Of a stretch of 64,000 nucleotides of DNA, positions 1 to 38,100 are shown one piece after another; the first letter of the stretch is position 1, and each line of letters starts with the position of its first letter. The DNA comes from Perna viridis. Lineage: Eukaryota. The stretch lies in NCBI GenBank assembly GCA_037379345.1, contig CM074516.1:31161626-31225625 (forward strand), read 5' to 3'. The translations under genes were made by a program, and so were the position numbers. The notes below the pieces were generated by a model, which was not told the DNA's origin, did no database searches, and saw nothing but the letters and a program-made list of their open reading frames with translations.

Positions 1-1959
1 ACCCTCACTTGGTGGTATATTTTCGACTTGTTCCTGCAACATATATTTCGGTTCAGCGAATTGGGCTTTACAGTATACCTTAGATATTTTAGAAAAATCA
101 AAATCACATGTAATATCTACTGGTTGCAAAAGAACCAGTTTAGTTGTTAAATGGGCCCTTAAGCGATCATTACAACTAGCGAATGTAGAAATCAAATTCA
201 TGACAAAAAAATAGTGATATATAAAAATGATTTCTAAAGAGATATGTGTCCGACGTAAAAATAGCTTTAGGGATTATAACCAACCAAGAATAGTAAACGC
301 AATACCACGGGCAGTGGCTGACACTACATCTCCAGACAGTGAACAAAAAAAAAACCAATAACTTAAAATTCTCTACAACATGCTTATATTTTACCTTATC
401 AAATGCTTCCACGTTCAGATGACATTATTCTTTGAACCAGAATCCCTTAAATCTGTGGCTTCACACCTTGAATTGCGCATGATAAAACCTCTCGATTCTG
501 GAATTGGCATCCTATTTCGATATTCTGGGGGCTGGATACTTCTTGTATGCATTTTGTGTTTATCTCGATCTTCCTATAAATTTTATTCGTATACGGTGCT
601 CTTTGAAATACGTGTACACCATATTATTTATAAAAGATATAAAGGTATTTTATTATTTTTAATAAGTACTAATAAAAAATTAGTTTCATATCCATAAGAA
701 AACGTAACTTTTTATTTAGGGAAGGAACACGATGCGTATAAAACTACTTTGTATTTTTGCTTATGCAAAATACATATTTCACTAAATAATTCAAGTCTGT
801 GGCACAAAAACATAAAACCAGGATATGTGCAGAAAAAGTGATCATATTTGTTTAATGAAAACATATAATCTGTTTTTATCTGAAATATGAACGTAGCCTA
901 GTGAATTAGAAACGCACAAACAACTTTTTCTCCCCTTCTACGTATTGTTAAGCCACCAAATAAAAACAAATAAATATAAAAAAAAGTCGTCTTAGCAGAC
1001 ATATATTGACAAAAAGAAAAATGACAAAAACTAGCATATGAATTTAATATATGAATATTGCACAGCAAACGACCTTGAATCGCACCTTTTCCTATGTTAT
1101 AACACTATAACACAATCATTGATGCTTGTTCATTGTGATGTTAAAATAAAATAACTTTATATATTCACAGTTGATATAGTCATATTTCAGAAACAGTTAA
1201 TATGTGGCTTTTCATAGAAACCGTGTTCTTAGGAGATAAAATTTATATAGAAAACACTCTAGAAAATCAAAACTATGGGAAATAACTCAGTAAATGACAC
1301 TAAAATTCAATAGAAACTGTTGGATTTTAGAAGTGAATTATCTCCTATGAGCAGACAGATTGGGATGAATGATTATAAATTGCATTATATAGACTTATAA
1401 AGAAACTTCATGAATTCTGCCGTATTTTATACAAATGTATCTAGGCAAATATTTGCAAAAAATATATATGATGTAGTTCAACACATGTTTAAGCTGCATT
1501 GAAATTACCAATTATTTTCATATCATTCGAACATATAAATAGCATATCATATCAATACTTGTATGTAACAAGGTATAATGTTGTAAAAGGTTACCTTGTA
1601 TTATGAATTTCTAAGCATTCCTTCATACAGTTAATGGAACAAAAATGATATGACGACTCCGACACTGACTGAGCTTTTTGTTATAGTACAGCGTTAAATG
1701 AATAAATAGTATGCAACTTTGTGTATATACTAATGGATAGTTTCTTTTCAGATTTTCATACATTACATAATTACAAAACGAAATAACGAAATAAGTCAAT
1801 GATATCAGATAAAAAAAATTAACAACGTACGTCATGTAAATGTTATTATTTATTCAGAAAGGATTTTCTGTACCAAAAAAGCCGTACATTTTGTTTGGGA
1901 TAGATTTTTCCTCTTTCCGTAACAGATTTTTGAACAACATACCACAAACTTAAAAACTG

Positions 1960-8086: not shown

Positions 8087-10530
8087 AAGAGTATCAAGGA
8101 AACTAAGATTATAGCGGTAATCAAAAGAATGTAATCCAGGGACAAAGACTAGACGTGGAAAACAGACATACACAACAAAGAACATAAAGTAACTAAAATC
8201 ATACATACAAAGTAACAAAAGTAAATGAGCAACTCGGACTCCACTAAAAACTGGGAGCCTGGACCAGGTGCACCGGTAGGGTAAGCGTACTCTGCTTTTC
8301 TAGAAACACCCGCCGAGTTGTTGCTCATAAAAAGTCAAGTCCGGGGTAGACAAACGAGGAAAGGTAAACTATGACCCGTTGAATAAATCAGTTTTCGTGG
8401 TGCTGATGGATACATCACAACGATCCACGAGTTCATGATGACGACCATAAAACTTCTGTAGTGATGACTTCAATCTTGTAGCAACATAACCTTGTTCCAG
8501 AAGCCTATTTTTTAGACTTCTAGCGCGATACAAAAAGTCTACGTAGTTTCGGCAAGCTCTGGCATAACGTATGAGTTGTGATATGAACACTCCATGCGCA
8601 GGAGCCGAAGGGATGTTGCCACAGATGAAAGGAAAGTTGACAATTCTGAATGAAAAGTCATCACGTTTGTCGTAAAGTTTGGTCAATAGTTTTCCTTTAC
8701 CATCGATTTCTAAGTGTAGGTCAAGATATGAGGCTGACTTCACAGTGTCTATAGTATCCTTTATCTCAAGTTCTTTTGGGTAGATGCGATGTATCAGATC
8801 CCCGAAATTAGGATTGTTTAAAGATAATACGTCATCTATATAGCGGAAACTGAGATTGAAGGATCTAGCCAAACGATATTCTTTCTTTCTAATCAAATCA
8901 TCTATAAAGTCAGCCTCATGAGAGTGAAGAAATAGGTCAGTAAGTAAAGGACCACAGTTTGTTCCCATTGGAATGCCGAACGTTTGTTGAAAAACACGTC
9001 CACCACACTGGACAAATGTGTTGTCGATTAAAAGTTCCAGCATTTTGTAAACATCTTCCTCTGTATATTTGGAATTATTTCTTACAATCTTGAGGAATCT
9101 TTACCAAGAGCTATATATTTGTATCTAGGTGTACCATCTTTTTTGGAAAACCAACGATGTATAATGTTTTTAAGTCGGGATTTTAACTGAGTATGGGGAA
9201 TAGAAGTATACAGTGTTGAAAAATCATAGGTTTTGATGCTATTATATTCTAATAATAGTCTTGAACTGATTGTCTCCAACAGATCTTTCGAATTTTTCAG
9301 CACATTGAATTAATACCACTACGGGAGTAACAAGTGTTGTGGTAGGACTGCAGACCTTCTTTGACAGTTGTGAGTATAGAAGTTATAAGTTTTGAAAGAG
9401 GTTTGGTGGTACATTTTGCAGATCCAGCTATGAAACGTTGTTTGTATGGATTCTTGTGAAGTTTAGGAATCCAACACATAGACGGTAAATCACAATCATC
9501 GTCCTTGGTAGAGAGACCAAAAGAGGATAGCACAGATTGATGGTTTTCCACAATCTCTTCTTGGGAGAGAGTGGTAGCAGTATAGGTCTTATCACTGCTA
9601 TTATTTTCTACGTCTACCTCTGATAATAAACATTGGATATTAAACGTTTTGCAGACAAAAACAATGTTGTTTTGGGTTTTGTCTGCTGGTACGACAACAT
9701 ATTTGTCATGTATAGTAGACAATGCTTTTGCTACATCGGGGTCTTTGAAAACTGATGTAGCCTTGGCACTCATTGACCTACTTAAAACTTTCATTCGTTT
9801 CAAAATTAAAGACCTCACGACCTTTAACCACTCTGACAGAGAATCAATGTCTTCTTGTTCTCGTTTTATCCTTTTTCTTGCATAGTTCTGGACGGCATCC
9901 ATAAGAACTTTAAAGTTATAATTCCAATTTATGGAGCGTGGTTCACGGACCTTTAGAAAGGATATTACGTAGAGATTCGTTTTCGATAATGGTTAAATCT
10001 CCCGTAACGACGTTATCAGAAGGACCATATTTGAATGGAGAGGTTTTGCAAGAACAATATGTGGTTTAGCCTTGAAGTCCTCAATCTCGAGGTTCTGCAA
10101 TAGCCTTTTATAATTGAAAATTTTGGATGCAATGGGTGAAGTATAGGAATATGAAATAATTGGTATGGATTTGTCTTTGAATTATGGGGGAATTTTGGTG
10201 GTAACGTTTTTGTGATGGAGGATATTAGCCAAATTAATTGCATCTATACCTTTGTTGACAAACGGTAGTGAAGAAATGATCGTTTTTCTTCATCTTGACT
10301 TTTCACACAAACTGGTTTAAAGAGTCTGTGGAGTCTATGCAATATCTAAAATGATGGCAACAAGTCTATATAATGAAGAGGTGGGGGTCAGAAACAGGGG
10401 TGTCAAGACTTGTTTTGTAAAGGGGGTGTAGTGGAGTGAGAGGTATAGAATAAATTTTGGTTCTAATGTGATGAAGTCCAAAAGGTTTTTGTATGAAAGG
10501 AAGGACACCATCTATGGAGACATAATGTAA
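8087..10530 (-). mobile_element. Naiad-clade Penelope-like retroelement, 5'-truncated, frameshifted RT
   Basis: RT motifs PADK, WIPKLHKNPYKQRFIAGS, YDFSTLYT, GIPMGTNC, FRYIDD, YLDL, LYDKRDDF. The ORF stops right after the thumb (FYGRHHEL...DLFNGS*) with no C-terminal GIY-YIG. The upstream linker is homologous to the CxC...GHVITGDL...KGPKYREP segment of the 40713 copy. A 4-nt deletion near 9300 and other frameshifts break the ORF. Confidence 0.88.
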
Positions 10531-10956: not shown

Positions 10957-12600
10957 TTTACTTACTTACTTATCCTCTTTGCGCCTGGTGGCGCATAAGA
11001 CTGTAATTAGGGACCTCCAGTTTTCTCGGTTTCTGGCTTTTTGGCTCTGCTCTCAATTTTACCCCAGGTCTTTCTCGTGTCTTTGAACTCTGATGTCATA
11101 GTGCCTCCATGTTTCTCTTGGTCGTCCTCTGTTTAGTTTGCCTCTGATGATGTCCATTTGGCAGTTACTCTGATGATATTGTATGCCTCTCTTCTGTTGA
11201 CATGGCCAAACCAACTTAATCGTCTATGCATTATCTGGATCATGATGTCAGTTTGACCAGTCTTTTCATACAATGCCAGGTTGGTGATCTTTTGTGGCCA
11301 ATATATTCTTGAGAGATCTCTCAGGCATTTGTTGTGGAATCCTGAGAGTCTCTTGATGTCTTTCTGTGTTATTCGCCAGCATCCAGACCCATACAGAAGG
11401 ATTGATATGACAATGCTGTTTTATAATTTGGTTTTTGTCCACAGGCTGATGTTGTTTTTCTTCCATATTCTGTTTAGTTAGTGAAATGCGACATTTGCCT
11501 TTTGAGGTCTGTTGGCAATATCCATTGATGTTGCAATGCTTTTACTTAATGTACTTCCTAGATAGGTAAAATCTTTGATTCTTCAAGTGGTTCATTGTCT
11601 AACCTGATTTCTGTTGGGGAAGGAACAAGTCGCATGGCTTTTGTCTTTCTTTTATTGATGTTCAATCCAACTTGTTTAGCGTCTTTTGACAGGTCTTCAG
11701 TTTTTCCCTGCAGATGTTCGGCATTGTTGGATAGCAGAGCTACATCATCGGCAAACTTGAGATCTTCTAGCGTTTATGTTAAAGTCCACCTTATGCCCCT
11801 TTGCCGATTCCCAACAATTCTCGTCATCATCCAAACTATTGCTACAAAGAATAACATAGGTGACATGATGCATCCTTGTCTGATTCCACTTGTGATGTAA
11901 AACCATTCACTGAGCTTGTTGTCATCTATAATGCTGCATGAAAAGTTGTTATAGAATGATTTAAGTATTCGAACGAGTTTATCTGGGCATCCATAGGCTG
12001 TAAGTATTTTCCAGAGGCTCTCATGATGTAGACTGTCAAATGCCTTTTCAAAGTCTATAAAGTTTAGATGTAATTTACTATTCCATTCTATGCACTGCTC
12101 CGTTATTTTTCGTAGAGTAAAGATGTGATCAATGCAACCAAAACCTGATCTGACTCCTGCTTGTTGTTTTTGGAGTTTGTTCTCAATGGCTTCATTCAGT
12201 CGCATGCAGATGATCTTGCAAAAGACTTTGATGGGAACTGAAAGGAGCGTTATACCGCGCGAGTTTGAACAGCTCACTCTATCACCCCTTTTCGGTAACT
12301 TAACTATCAGTCCTATGCACCAACCAGTTAGGAGTATCTCAGATTCCCATATTTCTGAAAACAAAATGTGTAGCTGATATGTAGCTAGCTTAATATCTGC
12401 TTGAAAAGTTCACCATTTAAGTTGTCAATTCCAGGTGCTTTGTTGTTTTTTTTTTCAGTTTTAGGATGGCTTTCATGGTTATGTCTTTTGTTGGTGGTTC
12501 GAGATGTATGTCCATTCATTCTCCAAAGTTTTCTTGGTTGTTACTGTTGGAAGGTGCTCCAGTGAGTTCTTTTGTAATTCTATATACTTCACTTAGCTCA
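10957..12600 (-). mobile_element. RTE-clade non-LTR retrotransposon, 5'-truncated
   Basis: IVKLPKRGD..CSN.RGITLLS, QAG.RSG.GCIDHIFTLR, FIDFEKAFDS, GIRQGCIMSPMLF, FADD and FTYLGS, with a (TAAG)n 3' tail at 10957-10975. Confidence 0.9.
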
Positions 12601-12802: not shown

Positions 12803-15800
12803 ATGTTTAATTTTCTGAAATTCAGAAGGAAGTTTAATGTGGTTGTAACGCATTGCAGATGTCAGAATAAGGTATGTGTTTGTGAATAATTAATTGAAAA
12901 ATATCAATATCAATATTTTAAATCGGATAGTTGTATATGAATCATAATAAGTCGTTTGATAATCACAGATATTCACATGAATGAATTGGCTTCAATTAAT
13001 AGTCATGATCTACATTTTAATGTGTAATGTGAAGTTCATCTGTGATGTTTGTATGTTCTGAAAAGAAAGGCATGGACATTATAAATCTGTCTAAAGTAAC
13101 ATGAAACTGTTGAAAACGTTGATATGTGAATTCGTCGTATTTTTGGTATTATAATCCAAGCTTCAAAATGATGTTTAAGATTGGAAGTTTTAAAACAGTT
13201 ACATATTTTGCAGACTTTTACCTTGATGGACAGCGTCATGATGGAGAAAAAATGGTGTAGTACGCTGACCGACTCAAATGACATTATCATACATTTACGT
13301 ACATCTTATTCATCTGGGCTTGTGTTTGACGTTCTTTATATCGCCATAACAAATGAAAAATTCCCCCTTCCAACCAATGTGTTTGGTTACGTGTCACAAT
13401 CTGGAATGAAAATTCCTTTGAAGAATAGTTTGTCTGGAAGTAAAATCAGACTATTGGTATATGGATTGCAAAAACGATTATTTAACGGGGAACCTTTCGA
13501 CGAAGTAGTGTGTTTTGGGGAAAGTGAAATAACAAGTGAGTTTTTGTTTGTTTTTTTAAAATAACTGTAACATGTACATAGAAAACACGTACCGATGTTA
13601 CAATTAGTAATATAATAAAACAATAAGTGGCTGACATTGATCAGATTTTTCTATGAGGTGATACTAGAAGCATGAAATTTTATCATTCTATAAAGAGTAA
13701 AGCAAACATTATTTTATCACACCTTTAAACTACTTTTTACCAGAATATAATGAAACTGATATTGTTTAAATGCAATCGTTTAATTTTATTCTTTCATCTT
13801 TTCAGTTAAACAACAGACAAATTTTCAAATAGATATAACTCTGAATAAGAATATGGAAATACCAGTTGATTCTTCGTACAAGGTATACATCTAACGTTAA
13901 TTACTGTGTGGTTTACTTGTTCAATACAAATATATCAAAACCCACATGAAATTTCTTTAGTATCAAATTTATTTAGGGATTGAATGTTTCGTAATTGATC
14001 TTACATCGGCGTTGACCGTATTACATTTTCAGTGAAGCACGCTTACTCCCTCATACTGACTTTGATCTAAGTGTTATCTAGTTATTGTTCTTTTTCTTCT
14101 TGTTTTTCCAAGAATTTCAGGTACTGCATGACGTACCATCAAAAATTATACGGACTACTCCAGAAGTATCTGCCGTACCAGGTGCTATGCCCCTGCATTT
14201 AATATGATTCCTTATTTTATTTCAATTATATTTTAAATGTACATAGGAAATGGGCGATACACTAATACGATATTAACAGTGATCAATAAAAATATTCCAT
14301 TTAGTCATTTTCATTGGCCTTTATAAATAGTTCGAAGACGTGCTTCATCGACTCATGTGATATCACGTGTAAAATCGGTTATCCAATGATATACTAGTAA
14401 GCGTATTTTAATGATATGAAAAGTAAATGTAATCATTCATTTTTCATTTTAACTGTGTATTTACTTCTTCCATGTTTTTTTTACAAAAGACAACACAATG
14501 AAACACTTTGCAATTTTGAAAAAAAATATATTGAATTAGTTGTGATTACTTAATGATATTTATGAACATTATGACGGATACAACTTAAAATAAACAATAG
14601 ATATCAATGTATATTTTATCAATTTTCAGGGTGACCTTGACGTAAAGGTCCAACGACATATCCCACCTAAATATACACTAAGACATGACTCATAATTTTT
14701 CTTTCAAGTCGAATTTCTCATTTTCATTAAATACTGTAGTAAAATTTTCATTCGTTGTGTAATAGCAAAATCATTGGACTACGAGATTCCCATAGACTTT
14801 CCTTCCGCCACCAATGTTTTATGCATCGTATTAGCAACCACAAGAGAGCTATATGAAAAAGGCAAAGTGTATGTATCCAAAACAACTGGTAGCAGTTCTT
14901 CCTTTACTTTCAAAACATGTAAGTTTCTATTTAAACAAACAAATTATTCCATCTAATTTGACAGCAAAGAATGTGATAAAAGTATGCATAGAATTTAATT
15001 TAATCAAATAACATTCAAAAATTTTAAAAAAAATACTAGGAATGTCAAAACTGTTCAATGCTCCATTTTGAAAACATTTTATTAAAAGTACTACTCATAT
15101 TAAAACTGCAAATTCCAGTAAGCTGTACACTGTTTCAATGAGTTATATCTTATAAGCAGTATTAGTAAATACTAAATAAGTAAGGTGATATCTTAAATAT
15201 CAAATAACATTTCAGATGCCAGGGTACACTTGACTAGAATATCATATACTATTTCAGATGCATTGCATTAGGTACCGACTCTGTCGAACAAAACATCAAA
15301 ACAACATGAATATATAATCATCGATTTATATACTTGCACGAAATTGACGGTTACCCTGCAAGAGACAATAATTATTGATTGTGGAAAGAAAGAATTGAAT
15401 CTTACTTTTATTTTATTTTCTTTCCGATGTAATAACTTATTCTGTCAACTGTTCTCAAACTACACATTTCCGTTTCTTACATCGTTAATATCAATATATA
15501 ACAATCACCACTTTCAAAACAGGATACCCTTAACAGCTTATGTCAGGATCATCTTCATATTTGTTTCAGATTTGAACAAGGATGATATACATTCGCTGTT
15601 TTTCTTGGCAACTAAGTACGGATTGCGTGTTGGAAAACCTAATTTGCATCCAATAAGATACATCTACAGAAATAAACCTGATCACTACTTTAACAACATC
15701 CGATTTCAACGAGACGGTATCATGGAGCCATATCTAAAAAGTAATGGAGGTGAGCAAGGTTCTGTGTTAAACGGTCGACTAAAAGGATTGTTTTTCAGTA

Positions 15801-16249
15801 CACTGGTAGATCCTTTAACCAACATGCCATACGATTTCTCATATTTTGGGAACATTCGGTTGTATGTGGAAGCTAGCTATCTCTTTCATCCTAATTGCAA
15901 TTTGTACTTTTCTGACTTTTATTGCCATACCAAACGGCATCACGTGACTTTAGTTCTCACTCCAAAATCATCTCCTACGAATGAACTTTGTAGAAAATAT
16001 CTTCTCCAGCTAGATATACTCAACAATCCCTATCTCCATATTTTCAGATACAATGATGGTTCATTTTGTGTGTTAGCCAATATGAATGTTGTTGTTGAGA
16101 TCTTTTATACAGACCCGATAGATATTTCAAGCCTTTTAGAAATTGGTGCAGGCTTTATGAGAAGGACACCTACCAAGGGAAGAGGATACGCCTTACCATC
16201 TGGCATTCCAAAGAATTCGTCATGTGTTTTATGTAATTTGTATCGATGA
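12803..16249 (+). pseudogene. PHYHIP-like copy A (complete exon set, one in-frame TAA)
   Basis: Exons 12803-12871 (tentative), 13214-13535, 13806-13882, 14630-14918 and 15570-16249, with GT-AG sites and matching phases (0,1,0,1). The last exon has the PHYHIP C-domain motifs YRN..YF, PYLK.NGG..GS..NG.L.GLFFS, F.P..NLYF.DFYC, NNPYL, K...C..CN. TAA at 14693-14695 lies in frame. Confidence 0.8.
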
Positions 16250-19838: not shown

Positions 19839-22800
19839 ATGTCCTATAGAAACGTTGACAATAGCATTTCATTAGAACGCTGTGAAGTAGTAAGTATATT
19901 GATAAACGTAAATAAACTTTTAGAGAAGAAAGAATAAGTTTTAGACAAAACTTTTTTCACATGAATGTTTGGAATGACCCAGGATATTTTCTAGTACATA
20001 AAGGATATCAAATACAACAAAATGTAGCATTTTATATTAGAGATTATATCACAACATGTTCACTGATTTTGGTTAAACTAGTGTTCCAGGATACAAATGA
20101 TACAGACTATATTATCATAGTGAAATAATAGTTGTCCATAATTCTATTTTATCTCAACCTGAAATCATGACGGTGTATTTACTACTAGAGAAATGTAGAT
20201 GCAATTAATTTGGCTATGGTGATCTACCATGAAAACGTCACAAACAATCTTCAGCCGAGTACAATTTAAAAAACAAATCCATGCCGATTATTTCATATTC
20301 CTATACATAACCTATTGCATCAAACGTTCTCAACTACAAAAAAAGGTTTTGTAGTAAATGAAGATTGAGGACTTCAAGAATGTGTTTACATAAATGATTC
20401 GAACCAACAATTCCATAGAGTGAGCAGTAGAATTAAAGGACCAAAATTATCTCTTTTTAGACTGCAACATGGGCATGGACGTTTACTCTGAAGGATTCAC
20501 ATGATAAAATTGTACCTCTTAGTATTACCTGTCCGATCAACGTGGTTTTTAATGTATTGTATATCCTTGTCATCAATAAAGAAGACTCTTCATCAACTAA
20601 TATATTTGTTAATACTCACAAAAGTGGACTTACTATATTGGTTAATCTAAACTTGAACTTTGTTGGATGGAAAGTTAAGGTTTTAGGGTTTCAGACTATC
20701 AACTCGGTTACAGGGCAGTTTGATATAGCATTATGCAGTGGTACTACAGATATAACTTGTGAGTTTAAACATAAAGAGTAAATACTTGAGAAAAAAAAAA
20801 CAAATCTATCTTTTGATGTTACAAACATTATAATGCTGACGTTAGTAATTGAGAGCAATATTACTACTAATGTACATGTAATGCGTTAAAAGTATTATTA
20901 TTTACTAGTTTTTTTTCTATTGTATCATTTTCAATAAGAATTTGAAATTACTAAGATGAACAAATGAAATAAATTGGTTTAGTTGTTCAAAGACACTCAG
21001 AAAATTGACTTAACTTTTCTAAAATTCTTTATAATTACTTTACTCGTGTCATGTAATCAACATTTGATAACGAAATGAACTTTTTGAGCCTGACAACACA
21101 CAGAAGGAACAGCTCGAACAAAGATGTGCCACCACAAATAAACACAATAATTTCGAACCGACTCAACTCTTTATGCGAAACGTCGCGTGCTTGCCAGAAA
21201 AAACACTGACTACCAATTTGAGACTTTTTTGTATGACCCGTTGATCATTTAAAAAATTCCAGTATTCAAAACGAGCAATCTCCCCCCGAAGCGGTTAAAA
21301 AGTTAAATAATCAAGTATTAGAACAAACGGTTTAAGGTATGTAAAGACTAACTAACAAATGGTAGTAAATCTTTGATTCCTAAAAATTTGATAAATCTCG
21401 TTATATCCACTGATGTATTTATGTAAATTATGATGTAAATTATAGTATCAGAATCGGGTAGTTGTGACGTCTTCTACATAAACATGGCTGTAATTAATGA
21501 AGTGGATTTACCATTACAAGTTCCTACTCAGGTATAGTATAAATAATTAACATCGTAGTGCTATTCAAATATGTTCTTATTTTAATCTAATGAAGAAAAT
21601 GAACCCTGTTTTACAGAAAGTGTTTGATTTAAACTTTATGAGTGTGATATTGGTAGTAAAACATAATATTTTGTTAGGAAAACCGATACTACATTGACAA
21701 CCATTTGTTAATAGATTTAACCGCTCTTTAGGAAATAAAATATATCAGAAAAATTGTAGTTAAGATGAGTGCGACAAATGTATGTAACACTCGAAGGGTG
21801 ACAATAATAACATATATCAAAACATTTTATAGGGTACACTTCCAGTCAGCGTTTTCCGTCAACCGCCCTCATTGTATAGATTGGATATTAATCATATTTT
21901 CTCTCAAGAAAGGGATTTCATAGTGTTTGTAAAATTCAAGAGGCAGTTAAGATGTTACGTTATTCAACGTCAACGAATTTCTAAATACCAATTTCCATTT
22001 GAAATACCTTCTGCAACAACCGTGAACTGTAAAGTCATCTGTGCTCGTCGGCATCAGATTGAAGACAGTTTCGTGTGTCTCGCCACCATTTCTCACAGCC
22101 AGACAATTACGTTTAAAACTTGTAAGTATAATATATAAATAGGAAATTATTCCTATGCGACAAATCAGATATGGACGTATAATGTTCTAGCTTTAACAAA
22201 AATTAAGCCGTCCTGATAAACTGCAAATCAATCAATGTGGTAATAAAGCGTACGTCTATAAAAAAAAAACAATACAACATGTTAAGATATAAGCCTGCAC
22301 ATGAAAAAGCTTGTTAAGTCATGACTATTGCCGGGATTTTCGCCTATCTGTGTTTTGCCTTGATATTGCCCATTCTTATATGGACCTTTTCTTTCGACTA
22401 TCGCTTTTGTTTATTAGATCGGTAATTTTTGTTTTGCCCTACCTTTGAAAGAGATCGTTCCCACTTTGTATGTCATAGTTATAAATGTGAAATGTTTATG
22501 ATCTCAAACTTTCAAAATATCTTGGCACTGCTACGATGTTAAAAACCCTTCTCAGAGAACACCAAAAACAAATCAATATAAAATTTGGTAGAATTTTAAG
22601 TACTGTTATTATGAATGCATTAGTGTCTTGCGATATCATGGTATTTAAGAGGTGGGTCTTTATAACTGTTGAATATTGAAATATTTTTTTAAATTCTATC
22701 CCATATCATTCATTTCGTCTTAAGGATGTTCGCTGGTCATGTTCAGCCATGGGTTGTCAGATTTTTAAACTCCTCAGGTTTTATCCATTTCATAACATTA

Positions 22801-23968
22801 ATATTTTTTGCCCATTGACCCCAACCTTTCTTCTAATAATTGAATTTAACACACCTTAAACTATTATTTCGGACGTTATTTTAGACTCCTCTGGTTTTAT
22901 CCATTTCATAGCATTAATATTGTTTGCCCATTGACCCCAACCTTTCTTCTAACAATTGAATTTAACACACCTTAAACTGTTATTTCGGAAGGTTTTTTAA
23001 AATCCTTATTAATTCTTCAGTTGTTTTAATAGACTGAACCTACTTAGACAAACCTATAGAAAATCTTGAGAAATCCTTTTTCCACCAAAATTTCAAATGC
23101 TAATATTTCAAAAACGAGCACACTGACCCATATATTTTTTTATATTGTTCTATCATGAAAGATATTAAAAGATGTCACCAATCTTTGAAATCCTTGGTTT
23201 CAGACCAGCAAACATTCTTAACATTTGCTTCTTTTCAGACGAACTACTATCGCTTTGTGTGTTTATTTGTCATAACTCTCTTTATTTATTTCAGTCCTTA
23301 GCCTATCCGATACATACAGACTATATAACCTAGCAATGGAATTTGGATCTAGAAAAGTTACAGTAAACCTAAAGCCTATTCAATTTTTCTATAGAAACAA
23401 GTCTGTTGAATATTTCAACGTGATACTGAATCATCTAGGTGGTGAAATGCGGCCATATTTAAAGAGTAATGGCGGAGAGCAAGGCTCTGTTCTGAACGGA
23501 CGACTTCCAGGGTTGTTTTTTAGTACATATCTTGATCCGAATACGAACTTGCCAAACCCCTGTTCGTTCTATGGACCAGTTAGGTTGTATGTTCAAGCTC
23601 TAATCATGTTTAATCCTCAATGTAATCTTTATTTTGCCGATTTTTACTGCCATTACAAACGACACCACGTGACAATCATCCTAACTCCGAAGTTGTCTCC
23701 TTGTGTTCCGTTTTGTCGGCAGTATTTGACTGAACTGAATATTTTCAATAATCCTTATTTATGCTTGCATGCAACTCCCCAAGGTTTATTTGTCATGGCC
23801 AACATGGACGTCACGACGGAGGTTTTCTATACAGAAACTATTAATGTTATCAGCATACTAGCATTGAATTCAGGAAAATTTGAGAGATCCACAACCATTG
23901 GACGAGGATATGCTCCACCTACAGGACTTCCTAAAAATTCTGCATGCACAGTTTGTAATCTAATATAG
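19839..23968 (+). CDS. PHYHIP/PHYHIPL-like protein copy B, intact, about 465 aa (two FN3-like modules plus PHYHIP C-terminal domain)
   Basis: Exons 19839-19889, 20461-20758, 21446-21531, 21833-22121 and 23295-23968. All GT-AG, phases 0,1,0,1, 1398 nt with no internal stop. The C-terminal exon FYRNK..EYF...MRPYLKSNGG..GS..NG.LPGLFFS...YG..RL.....FNPQCNLYFADFYC.Y..H.V..L.PK.S....FC...L..L....N.YL...E..YTE...KNSACTVCN matches the recalled PHYHIP family sequence. Divergent paralog, so no symbol given. Confidence 0.88.
20195..20380 (+). mobile_element. Old internal Naiad fragment in intron 1 of copy B
   Basis: Homologous to 40855-41040 (DAINLA...PIISYSYT...IEDFK). A counterpart lies at 30290-30456. 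Confidence 0.7.
22721..23221. mobile_element. TTAA-flanked MITE (Kolobok-like) in the last intron of copy B
   Basis: TIRs aggatgttcgctggtc / gaccagcaaacattct flanked by TTAA. Internal ~118-bp tandem duplication (about 22768-23000). Orthologous copy at 32636-33020. Confidence 0.65.
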
Positions 23969-27916: not shown

Positions 27917-28218
27917 AAAATAACGACGTGGTCACAGGAATTCATTCTAATGGATACGCATGATAAAACTGTTGAATTGCCAATCTCCTGTCCGATTTGT
28001 TTAGTCTTCAATGCGTTATATATCATAGCAACGAATAAAGCACACATCACACAATTCTTCTTTCTTTGTAAATTCTCATAACAGTAGACTTAACATATCA
28101 CATGATCTAAATATGAGTTTGTCATACTCAGAAATACTGGTTTTCGGTTTACAAACTATCAATTCAGACACAGGACAATATGATGTTACAGTGTGCAGTG
28201 ATTCAACTTATATTAAAA
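27917..28218 (+). pseudogene. PHYHIP-like copy C, orphan first FN3-like exon
   Basis: AG/GT-bounded exon KITTWSQEFILMDTHDKTVELPISCPICLVFNALYIIATNK...FGLQTINSDTGQYDVTVCS, homologous to 20461-20758. It has an internal frameshift, and no downstream exons were found. Confidence 0.75.
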
Positions 28219-30534: not shown

Positions 30535-33500
30535 ACAGCAACATGGTCATGGGCGTTTACTCTGAAGGATTCACATGATAAAATTGTACCTCTTAGTATT
30601 ACCTGTCCGATCAACGTGGTTTTTAATGTATTGTATATCCTTGTCATCAATGAATAAGACCCATCAACTAATATATTTGTTAATAAGGGATCACAAAAGT
30701 GGGACAACTATATCGGTTCATCTAAACATGGACTTTGTTGGTTTGGAAAGTTAAGGTTTTCGGGCTTCAGACTATCAACTCGGTTACAGGGGAGTTTGAT
30801 ATAGCATTATGCAGTGGTACTACAGATATAACCTGTGAGTTTTAACATAAAGAATAGATACTTGTAAAAACAAACTTTTGTTAGATGTTACAAACATTAT
30901 AATGCTGAGTTAGTTAGCAGAAGAGAGCAATATTACTGTTAATGTACATGTAATACCCTATATGTATCATTTATATACTGTTTAAGTTTTTTCTTTGATG
31001 TCATTTTCAACAGAAAGTTTGGATGAACAATTGAAATTAATTGGTTTATTATTCAAAGACACTCCGGAAATTGACTAAACATTTCTAAAAATTCTTTATA
31101 AGAACTTTTACACTTTTATCAATTTCATTTATAAGGAAATAAAGTTTAGAGACTGAAAACATACAGAAGCAACAACTCGAAGAAAAGTATGTCACTACAA
31201 ATAGACAAATTAATTTCGCTCCATGACAGCCCAGGATCACTATCCGAAACGTTGCATGCTTGCCAGAAAAACCCTGACTACCAATTTGAAGAAGTTTTTG
31301 TATGACCCGTTGATCAGATCACGATTCTCCAGCAGTCGAAGTAACCATCTCCCACCCAGACGGTTAAAATGTTATATAATCAAGTATCAAAATAAAGAGT
31401 TTATGGTACATAAGACTTACTTTTCAAAAGGTAGTAATCCTTTGATTCTTGAAAAAATGGATAATTTCCCGTTTTAAACAAATATCCAATAATGCCTTTA
31501 TGTAAATCATGTTACAGTATCAGAATCAGTTAGTTGTGATGTCTATTACATAAACATGGCTTCAATTAGTGAAGTGGGTTTACAATTACACGTTCCTACT
31601 GAGGTATAGTATAAATAATTAGCATTGTGGTGCTATGCAAATATATTCTTATTTCAATCTGATGTAGAAAATGAACCGTGTTTCACAGAAAGTGTGTGAT
31701 TTAAACTTTATGAGAGTTATATATGTAGTAAAAAAAAGTTTTTGTTAGGAAAACCGATACTACATACCAGCGTTTTCTGTCAAATGCCTTATCTTTATAT
31801 ATTGGATATTAACCGTATTTTTTCTCAAGAGAGGGATTTCATAGTTTTTGCAAATTTCAAGAGGCAGTTAAGATGTTAAACTATTCAACGTCAACGATTT
31901 TCTGGATTCCCATTTCCATTTGAAATGCCTTCTACAACAACCGTGATTTGTAAGGTCATCTGTGCATGTCGGCATCAGATTGAAGTTGGCAGTTTCATGT
32001 GTCTCGCCACCATTTCTCACAGTCAGACAGTCACGTTTAAAAGTTGTAAGTATAATATATAAATATGAAATTATTCCCATGCGAAAAATCAGCTACGGTG
32101 GTATAATGTTCCACCTTTTTAAGCAGTCCTGTTTTTATATTAATATGGTAAGAAGGCATACGAACAATTGTGATGCATCGATTAAAAACAATGATATAAA
32201 TCAGCACATGAAAAAAGTCAGGATCATTGCGGTGGTTTCCGCCTTGTTATTGCTGTTTTATACAGACCTTTCTCTTTTAGCTATTCCTTTTGTTTATCAG
32301 TTACTATTACCCTTTATTTGCATGAAAAAGTTTCCGCTTTGTATGTCATAGTTTTAATTGTGAAATGTTATACATCTCAATTTTTTTTAAAGTATCATGC
32401 TTATACTTTGAAGCACTGCATACATATTATATCTTGTCAATGATATGTTGTTTAAAACTCTTCTCACAGCATATCAAAAAGATAACAATTTATATTTAAG
32501 TAGACCTTTAAGTACTGATATTAGGTGCATTAGTGTCTTGCGATATTAGAGTGTTTGAGAGATGGACCTTTATTTTATAAGTGTTGAAAATTGATATCTT
32601 TTTTTTAATTCTATCCCATATCATTCATTTCCTCTTAAGAATGTTCGCTGGTCATGTTCAGACATTTTTGTCAGATTTTCAGACTCCTCTGGTTTAATCC
32701 ATTGCACAACATTCATATTTTGCCCAGTGACCCCACCCTTCCTTTAATAATTGCATATAACACACCTTAATATGTTACTTCGGAAGTTTTCATAAAATCC
32801 TTGTCATGTCTTCAGTGATTTTAATAGTTTGAACTAACTTTGACAAAGCATATGACACTTCTAGAGAAATTTGTTTATCTGCCACAGTTTTAAATGTTGG
32901 TATTTCAAAAACGAGCACACTGCCAATATATTTTTTCTTATATTATTCTAACAAGAGAGATATTTCATCACCTTTTCATCACCCTTTGAAATCCTCGTTA
33001 GACCAACGAAAACTCCTAACATTTGCTTCTTTTAAGGCGAATTATTATTGCTTTGTGCGTTCAAATGTCATAACTCTCTCTATATTTTTTTCAGTCCTCA
33101 GCCTATTAGATACATGCAGACTTTATAACCTAGGAATTTGGATCTTCGATCACAGTAAACCTAAAGCCTATTTATTTTTTCTATAGAAACAAGTATGTTG
33201 AATATTTCGACGTTATACTGAATCATCTAGGTGGTGAAATGCGGTCGTATTTAAAGAGTAACAGCGGAAAACAGAGCTCACTTCGGAACGGACGACTTCC
33301 AGTGTTGTTTTTCAGTACATATCTTGATTCGAATACGAACTTGCCAAACCCCTGTTTGTTCTATGGACCAATTAGGTTGTATGCCCAAGCTCTTGTTATG
33401 TTAAATCTTCAATGTAATCTTTATTTTGCCGATTTCTACTGCCATTACAAACGACACCACGTGTCAATCGTATTAACTCCAAAGTTGTCTCTTTCTATTC

Positions 33501-33761
33501 CCTTTTGTCGGCAGTATTTGACTGAACTGAATATTTTCAATAATCCTTATTTAAGCTTACATGAAACTCCACAAGGTGTATTTTCTGTCATGGCCAACAT
33601 GGACGTCACAACATAAATTTTCTCTACAGAAACTATTAATGTTTTAAGTATACTAGCATTGAAAGCAGGAAACAGAGAGATCAACAACCATTGGACGAGG
33701 ATTTGTTCCACCCACAGGAATTCCTAAAAACACTGCATGCACAGTTTGTAATTTAAAATAG
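30535..33761 (+). pseudogene. PHYHIP-like copy D, pseudogene duplicate of copy B
   Basis: Exons and introns are colinear with 20461-23968. There is a premature TAA in the first FN3-like exon, a deletion of the acceptor of the second module near 31765, indels in the last exon, and TAA at 33614-33616. Confidence 0.85.
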
Positions 33762-36582: not shown

Positions 36583-38100
36583 TCGAATTATTTTAGGAGG
36601 ACGCAAAGCTACGTCCCATCTAACTCTTTTTCCAGCGCAGTCGGTATAGTTTCGCTTTTTACATTTTGACCATAAAGATGTTTTTTTCATGGAAACGCAA
36701 ATCACCTGATCGCAATTTTGTTTCCGGATTAGCCAAATACTGATAACTTAGTGGGATTCGAACAAAATGCATTGAAAATTGACATTGCGTGCCATGTGTT
36801 ATCTCCTGAATAAAATGTAGACAAATATAAGTAAAAAGAACAAACTTTATTGCGTCGGCTATTTTTTGTTTTAAGATAGTACTAGTTTTTACTTGTGATT
36901 GGAGTCATTTTGCGATCTTCACTTTCAAGGTTATGCGAGTTCTTAGACGAAATTAATTTGGCGTGGTGTCAACATTCTATCCTAATGTTATGGTGGTTTC
37001 ACATGATTTAGATGTTTCACGGTTATACGACTATAACTATCAAAAGGACAGTTGATCCGTTGACGAAAAAAATAACAAATATTTCTTTGCAAACAATTAA
37101 CCTAATGAAACCGGGATGTTAAGTGGTATAAACCTGGTTTTAATTGACAATATCCATCGGAAATGTCCGTGTTCCAGTTGTTGCCTTGATATTGCCATTT
37201 GTTGTTTTGACTTTCCTTCTTTTGACCACATCTTTTGACTATTGCTCAGAATTGTCTTCCAGGTCGGTAATGTTGGTCTTACCATTTATTTTGTAATTTG
37301 ATAAGTGGTTTACTGGTCATTCTCAATATGCATTTGTTCATTTTTATTAGTGTTTTTGTTTTGGGTAACAATGATTCGAACGATATATTTTTATCTCGAA
37401 AGACAAAGTCTGTAAGACAGGAGACAAGTAGCATACAGCCCCAGAAGGAATTGAAAAAATAAATTACATTCCTGACATCATCTTAGCCACAGGTTGATGT
37501 GCCTGGTGCACCGGTAGGGTAAAAATGCCTTAACACATCCGTCAGATTCCATTGAGTACCGGTTGTTTTTCAGTCTCCGTTTTGCTTTGCTTTGTCTTAT
37601 AGATTCTGGTCTAGAGTTTTGTTCAAAATAACTGTGGTTTCCTTTTCTTTCACTTTAAATTGAGTTCATTTTTATATTTCATTCGGTTAAATCTCTAGAC
37701 GGTCGTTCCAGGTTTGGTTAATATTTCAAGAGAATTTGTCTTGTGATATTTTCTTCAACTTTGTTACAGAAACGTATGATTTACAACTCTAGGATAATCT
37801 AGGGAAAACTATATACAAATCTCCTGTCCGATTTGTTTAGTCTTAAATGCGTTATATATCATAGCAACGAATAAAGCACACAGTTCTGCCATGCACATCT
37901 TTATAAATTCCCATAACAGTAGACTTAACATATCACTTGGTCTAAATATGAGTTTGTCATACTCAGAAATACTGGTTTTCGGTTTACAAACTATCAATTC
38001 AGACACAGGACAATATGATGTCGCAGTGTGTAGTGGTTCCACTTATATTAAAAGTAAATAAATTAAGTAAATGTCATAAACATAAATTGTAAACACCTAT

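Follow-up and report, generated by a model that had tools for sequence, protein, structure and literature searches.

The 64,000-nucleotide stretch of the Perna viridis genome analysed here (contig CM074516.1, positions 31,161,626 to 31,225,625; the window) contains a cluster of mussel genes whose products are related to PHYHIP and PHYHIPL, two brain proteins of vertebrates, and share with them a C-terminal domain, PHYHIP_C (Pfam PF19281). This domain very probably has an ADP-ribosyltransferase (ART) fold. By analogy with known enzymes and on a predicted structure, the single likeliest reading, to which we give slightly better than an even chance, is that PHYHIP_C is a divergent ART domain acting as an intracellular mono-ART that uses nicotinamide adenine dinucleotide (NAD+) and has a protein acceptor. 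Because they combine a predicted ART fold with two key catalytic residues, PHYHIP, PHYHIPL and their relatives are likely to be overlooked NAD-using enzymes.

We centred the analysis on the gene called copy B, in which 23297-23965 is an open frame of 223 aa from which the residues of the domain are numbered. A reading of the DNA from its sequence alone (the sequence-only reading) had proposed an R-S-E (Arg-Ser-Glu) motif with codons at 23393, 23522 and 23819, and these do lie in a single frame, as residues 33, 76 and 175. On its own the motif is weak evidence: when copy B was shuffled 5000 times, 210 of the shuffles satisfied a loose form of it. Conservation was scored in two sets of sequences. 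When 1.84 billion representatives were searched with a profile, 854 proteins scored at E<=0.001, and the listing covered 150 of these; the alignment of 150 sequences consists of copy B and 149 of the 160 qualifying sequences (domain covered, at most 480 aa; from 201). The second set was seeded on the motif around C118 and may overlap the first; its 74 distinct rows come from metagenomes, in which the best 80 of 171 loci were used. The residues of interest are as follows, with counts from the alignment and then, where given, from the metagenome set.

23393..23395, + strand: R33 of strand 1; its counterparts in the register are scabin R77 and PARP1 H862 (150/150; 72/72)
23516..23518, + strand: F74 on strand 2, likely triad position and putative equivalent of the PARP Tyr (145/150; 69/74)
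23522..23524, + strand: S76 at the end of strand 2, the serine of the sequence-only reading, variable (79/150; 7/74)
23564..23575, + strand: S90-x-[FY]92-G93 before strand 3, near-invariant, possibly a wall of the nicotinamide site (S 147/150, G 150/150; S and G 74/74)
23648..23665, + strand: C118 and H123, putative zinc ligands where an inserted beta-hairpin (strands 109-118 and 123-131) has its tip (149/150 each)
23819..23821, + strand: E175 of strand 5; its counterparts in the register are scabin E160, PARP1 E988 and DarT E160 (E 138/150, D 6; E 62/73)
23945..23956, + strand: C217-x-x-C220, putative zinc ligands (150/150 each)

The remaining alignment members have Q (3) or H (3) at position 175, which is acidic in 144/150. 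Basic residues are also well kept in the alignment: R96 (145), K56 (149) and K213 (147). Four vertebrate sequences named PHYHIP or PHYHIP-like (salmon, sole, two birds) all keep R, S, E and the four zinc-type residues. As judged from these comparisons, R33 and E175 are conserved from molluscs to fish and birds.

The sequence-only reading had also suggested an ART fold. The domain is predicted to have the split beta-sheet core of six strands that marks the ART superfamily. We built a model of residues 27-180, so that six residues precede R33 and five follow E175; it had a predicted local distance difference test score of 95.4. Of its 24 structure matches, 21 were ART-fold chains, including the top 17, and three were unrelated. 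The catalytic register was read from the first and last aligned residues of each match, which assumes gap-free terminal strands. Alignment to scabin 71..165 places R33 on 77 and E175 on 160, where scabin has its catalytic Arg77 and Glu160 (PMC7828395). Alignment to PARP1 858..993, from model residue 3, places them on 862 and 988, and the catalytic residues of PARP1 are His862 and Glu988 (PMC8150716). With Thermus DarT 7..165, E175 falls on 160, and E160 is listed as catalytic for the T. aquaticus enzyme (PMC8120803). The predicted register thus agreed at 5/5 positions across the three chains with checked numbering, with strand 1 carrying R33 and strand 5 carrying E175, as had been proposed. 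It also matches what we take to be the triad numbers of PARP2 (428, 558), PARP3 (384, 514), PARP16 (152, 254), RCD1 (333, 428), E. coli DarT1 (152), CopC (325) and OspC3 (326), and disagrees with those we assume for RhsP2 and AvrPphF. R33 and E175 would share one cleft of the model, because the equivalent residues do so in solved enzymes.

Foldseek against PDB and BFVD gave no match at E<=0.001, the top rows being xylanases and nucleotidyltransferases with TM-scores of 0.1-0.2, and sequence searches of PDB chains returned nothing meaningful. Profile-profile comparison with DUF952 (120 sequences), DarT (8), Tpt1 (4) and mussel PARP-like domains (7), all shallow profiles, gave no significant or in-register alignment. 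A scabin-like seed found nothing in this genome or in 401 Bacillota genomes, where the controls were silent too. No vertebrate ecto-ART chain was among the structure matches, an absence that carries no weight.

S76 had been proposed as the serine of a cholera-toxin-like (ARTC) enzyme, and as a family-wide assignment this is not supported. The published ARTC pattern (PMC7764402) is complete in 0/150. Its strand-1 element, [YFL]-R, is present (R 150/150, preceded by Y in 144 and F in 2). On strand 2, where [YF]-x-S-T-[SQT] is expected, S-T-[SQT] occurs in 4/150 and copy B has S-T-Y; the [QE]-x-E of the ARTT loop (ADP-ribosylating turn-turn) occurs in 3/150 and copy B has T-x-E. In an S-x-S or Y-x-x motif it is the first residue that belongs to the triad (PMC7955679, Table 1). 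The strand-2 motifs of eight mussel PARP-like domains were combined into a profile, which, scored at 216 positions, was best with its Tyr on F74 (12.9); Y112 also did well (12.1), and S76 scored -9.8. With a Tpt1 profile F74 and S76 tied, and a DUF952 profile preferred F75. The placement of the triad residue, S117 in scabin, varies with the profile family, and the end-residue alignments fix strands 1 and 5 but not strand 2. Y112 was provisionally set aside because it lies 79 residues past the strand-1 residue, as against 41 for F74 and 34 in PARP1. Since F74 is conserved far better than S76 and strand 2 ends at 76, we favour an R-F-E triad, which appears probable, its likelihood clearly above even. 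The less probable alternative is that F74-x-S76 is an ARTC-type motif, which would suit this genome and the vertebrate sequences.

A zinc site had been predicted from 'FYCH..HH' and a terminal CxxC. C118, H123, C217 and C220 occur all together in 148/150 and probably form such a site, whereas H119 (70/150) and H124 (32/150) drop out.

In ARTs generally, the Arg binds the NAD+ phosphates and the Glu activates the nicotinamide ribose (PMC7827354, PMC7764402). By analogy, NAD+ would be bound in PHYHIP_C between strands 1 and 2, with R33 holding its pyrophosphate, F74 (with S90-x-F/Y92) walling the nicotinamide site like the PARP Tyr, and E175 activating the nicotinamide ribose for transfer. Because the Q/E of the ARTT loop is absent, we propose that zinc on C118, H123, C217 and C220 clamps the C-terminal tail onto the inserted hairpin and so shapes the acceptor side. 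The N-terminal beta modules may bring in the protein acceptor, with acceptor choice determined by insert, tail and modules. A nucleic-acid acceptor would be our second guess because K35, K56, R96 and K213 are conserved.

The alternative that survives best is a pseudoenzyme or ligand-binding scaffold with an ART fold: NAD+, ADP-ribose, a nucleotide or a protein partner would sit in its cleft, and nothing would be transferred. PHYHIP_C has neither S-T-S nor Q/E-x-E, some homologs have His or Gln at 175, and there are precedents in TASOR and LRRC9 (PMC7955679, PMC9027952); in the account given in PMC7953787, moreover, binding to PAHX, BAI1 and DYRK1A is all that is known of PHYHIP. LRRC9, however, has lost triad residues (PMC7955679), whereas PHYHIP_C has an invariant R, a nearly always acidic position 175 and many other invariant polar residues, and we regard the pseudoenzyme as a serious but unlikely alternative. 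An ART-fold NAD+ glycohydrolase, or a maker of a small ADP-ribose derivative that has no macromolecular acceptor, is improbable. DarT, PARPs and others also transfer though they do not have the motif that is absent here, and a constitutive cytosolic NADase would need tight control, of which none was identified. Slightly more doubtful still, and in partial overlap with the mono-ART reading, is the strong form of the sequence-only reading, which had suggested receptor-plus-enzyme effectors: S76 would be the triad serine of canonical R-S-E enzymes like cholera toxin, and mussels would have expanded these as immune receptor-effectors. F74-x-S76 does suit the aromatic-x-S spacing of an ARTC-type motif in this genome, where 9/9 loci keep S76, and in the 4/4 vertebrate sequences, and the family has nine loci, seven of them within ~290 kb, with gene decay. 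Against this stand the lack of a complete ARTC pattern, the metagenome set, where S76 mostly gives way to M, L, G or A, and the absence of any immune domain among the Pfam matches of the 150 alignment members or 20 long homologs. That the domain is no ART at all, and owes its likeness to a common beta arrangement and chance motifs, is very unlikely.

The coding exons of copy B are as follows.

19839..19889, + strand: first coding exon, from the ATG; RNA joint 19889-20461, GT..AG
20461..20758, + strand: N-terminal module 1 exon (~100 aa); no Pfam match
21446..21531, + strand: linker exon; RNA joints (cut +2)
21833..22121, + strand: N-terminal module 2 exon; RNA joints; weakly FN3-like
23295..23968, + strand: last coding exon, PHYHIP_C, predicted ART-fold domain (Pfam, structure model)

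Copy B is spliced and expressed: its four GT..AG joints are supported by RNA reads and one contig set, the last joint (22121-23295) by 5, 1 and 0 reads in three raw runs of low depth. The spliced frame encodes 465 aa from the ATG at 19839, and the C domain starts at residue 243. Neither N-terminal module has a Pfam match, and module 2 aligned to the vertebrate FN3 region with P=0.023 (hhalign). The first 30 residues contain no hydrophobic stretch and no N-terminal signal peptide, as judged by hydropathy only and with no dedicated predictor; the most hydrophobic 19-mer (2.1) begins at residue 37, inside module 1. By the same measure copy B does not appear secreted or glycosylphosphatidylinositol-anchored as the mammalian ecto-ARTs ARTC1-5 are.

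Copies A, B, D and E all match PF19281 (E 1e-27 to 2e-37; copy B 126.8 bits against a cut-off of 27), and the window is of animal origin, with Mytilus proteins as the best named homologs. Of the nine PHYHIP_C loci in the genome, seven are on one contig and six have an open C domain. By tblastn, the motifs that the sequence-only reading listed are present in A, B and E, with Asp at the Glu position in E and a stop codon there in D, just as it described. Besides copy B, the window contains the following members.

13253..16249, + strand: copy A; exons near 13253-13534, 14630-14917 and 15570-16249; C domain open
27926..28214, + strand: module-1 exon fragment, frameshifted; no C domain found beside it
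30538..33760, + strand: copy D, a pseudogene with stops and frameshifts; stop codon at the Glu position
37813..43548, + strand: copy E; a T run near 42960 lacks one base; Glu position occupied by Asp

The dN/dS ratio (nonsynonymous to synonymous divergence) of copy B was 0.14 against E, 0.17 against A (dS near saturation) and 0.46 against pseudogene D. These values point to purifying selection on the PHYHIP_C domain, which is also present in vertebrates. In this assembly an upstream exon of copy A is interrupted by an in-frame TAA (14693-14695). In RNA the base at 14694 is C in 4/4 reads of one run, 1/1 of another and one contig; the TAA is either a polymorphic null allele or an assembly error. 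The one-base T-run deletion (42955-42965) is the sole break seen in copy E, for which three RNA runs gave zero reads at 97% likeness. Copy E may be recently lost, absent from the sampled animals or mis-assembled. Two PHYHIP_C copies ~37 kb apart have identical protein and a dS of 0.01 (L022:462-1055 and L023:421-1014; G000:C6), and appear to be either a very recent duplication or a duplicated haplotype. Among the copies are decayed reverse-transcriptase-like pieces, which we take to be of retroelement class, at 8369-9992 (-), 11774-12409 (-) and 40624-41540 (+). A C2H2 zinc-finger exon at 51157-51483 (-) presumably resembles the C-terminal cluster of ZEB/Zfh1. Elsewhere in this genome there are 39 matches to PF00644, among them several PARP-like domains that are compact, occupy a single exon and seem to lack the Glu of strand 5 (L028, L029, L031, L032, L035-L037; G000:C12, C3).

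The 80 metagenome loci have a median of 0.45 of their length in open reading frames of at least 100 aa, as expected of animal DNA. None of 117 candidate stretches in viral contigs was a relative, and none was found in GenBank phages. The only match in GTDB (1/45) came from a Bacillales metagenome-assembled genome, where a 3.8-kb contig carries a gene that is split by introns and looks eukaryotic (L001:837-2103); it is likely eukaryotic contamination and was rejected. Thus, within the searches of viral contigs, GenBank phages and GTDB, no sequence is a credible bacterial or viral PHYHIP_C member. A search for longer fused forms, spanning 838-2390 aa only, returned two proteins. In the ESM Atlas, neighbours at 0.86-0.94 (fewer than 170 shared features) were unnamed viral and bacterial clusters and DUF5846; for query P0054, residues 125-334, those at 0.93-0.94 were clusters from phages, giant viruses and Bacillota, one of which has DUF5846 in 25% of its members. 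These clusters are possibly distant ART-fold relatives, and we treat them as a lead only.

The importance of these results rests on the vertebrate orthologs more than on the mussel cluster. In PMC7953787, the passages on PHYHIPL give its function as unknown, discuss only its FN3 domain and describe a cerebellar phenotype in mice with a stop allele. 'PHYH' is absent from the main text of three ART catalogues (PMC7955679, PMC10450202, PMC9027952), and PHYHIP_C is not among the finds reported for a Foldseek screen of human models with PARP1, namely LRRC9, TASOR and NEURL4 (PMC10450202). Judged by titles and the start of abstracts, none of the papers listed for PHYHIP or PHYHIPL together with ADP-ribosyltransferases, PARPs or AlphaFold concerned the C domain, and none of those listed by a broader search named PHYHIP; an earlier assignment may exist in supplementary tables of proteome-wide fold classifications, in subscription journals or in ECOD, TED or InterPro. 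By the consensus as given in PMC9027952, the Arg-type ARTs of mammals are extracellular, and the ARTs found inside the cell are the PARPs and a few PARP-like domains. If our reading is true, PHYHIP_C adds a family of intracellular ARTs that has kept both catalytic positions, a testable activity with named residues can be assigned to two vertebrate proteins that are enriched in the brain and lack a known biochemical function, and Foldseek screens seeded with PARP1 overlook some animal ART folds. More tentatively, at a little under an even chance, PHYHIP and PHYHIPL would be active ARTs of a new hybrid class, with an Arg-Phe-Glu triad and a zinc-clamped acceptor side, missing from the human ART catalogues; they would be the first ADP-ribose writers of Arg type in the cytosol of vertebrates, at work in the brain, and repeatedly expanded in molluscs and annelids.

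Compared with known systems, the mussel domain is alike to vertebrate PHYHIP and PHYHIPL (FN3 plus PF19281) in Pfam family and in the R, S, E and zinc-type residues kept, and unlike them in the two diverged modules at the N-terminus of copy B and in its membership of a family of nine loci. With the R-S-E/ARTC clade (the scabin/pierisin family, PDB 5ewk; pertussis-like S1; CARDS; MTX) it shares an aromatic-Arg on strand 1, a Glu on strand 5, the same register and a single ART core. With the ARTD/PARP enzymes (PARP1, PARP2, PARP3, PARP16, tankyrases) it shares the H862/E988 register, a strand 2 of the form G-x-aromatic-F-small and a predicted intracellular location. It differs from them in having Arg rather than the His of H-Y-[EDQ] on strand 1 and, at the best-scoring position of a putative register, Phe rather than Tyr on strand 2, with no profile match. 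Tankyrases have a CHCC zinc finger within the ART domain (PMC10450202), and PHYHIP_C has its putative zinc site inside the domain too, a likeness that need not reflect homology. CC0527/DUF952 (2jqn), DarT (7omv, 8baq, 7yk3) and Tpt1/KptA (7yw2, 7yw4) show no profile similarity to PHYHIP_C; Tpt1 and DarT use His on strand 1, and compared with such divergent small ARTs PHYHIP_C is larger and was found only in animal-type DNA in these searches. Because it lacks two of the R-S-E motifs and the PARP His, we place it in neither clade. On the predicted model and the alignments, PHYHIP_C resembles ARTs in its fold and two catalytic positions.
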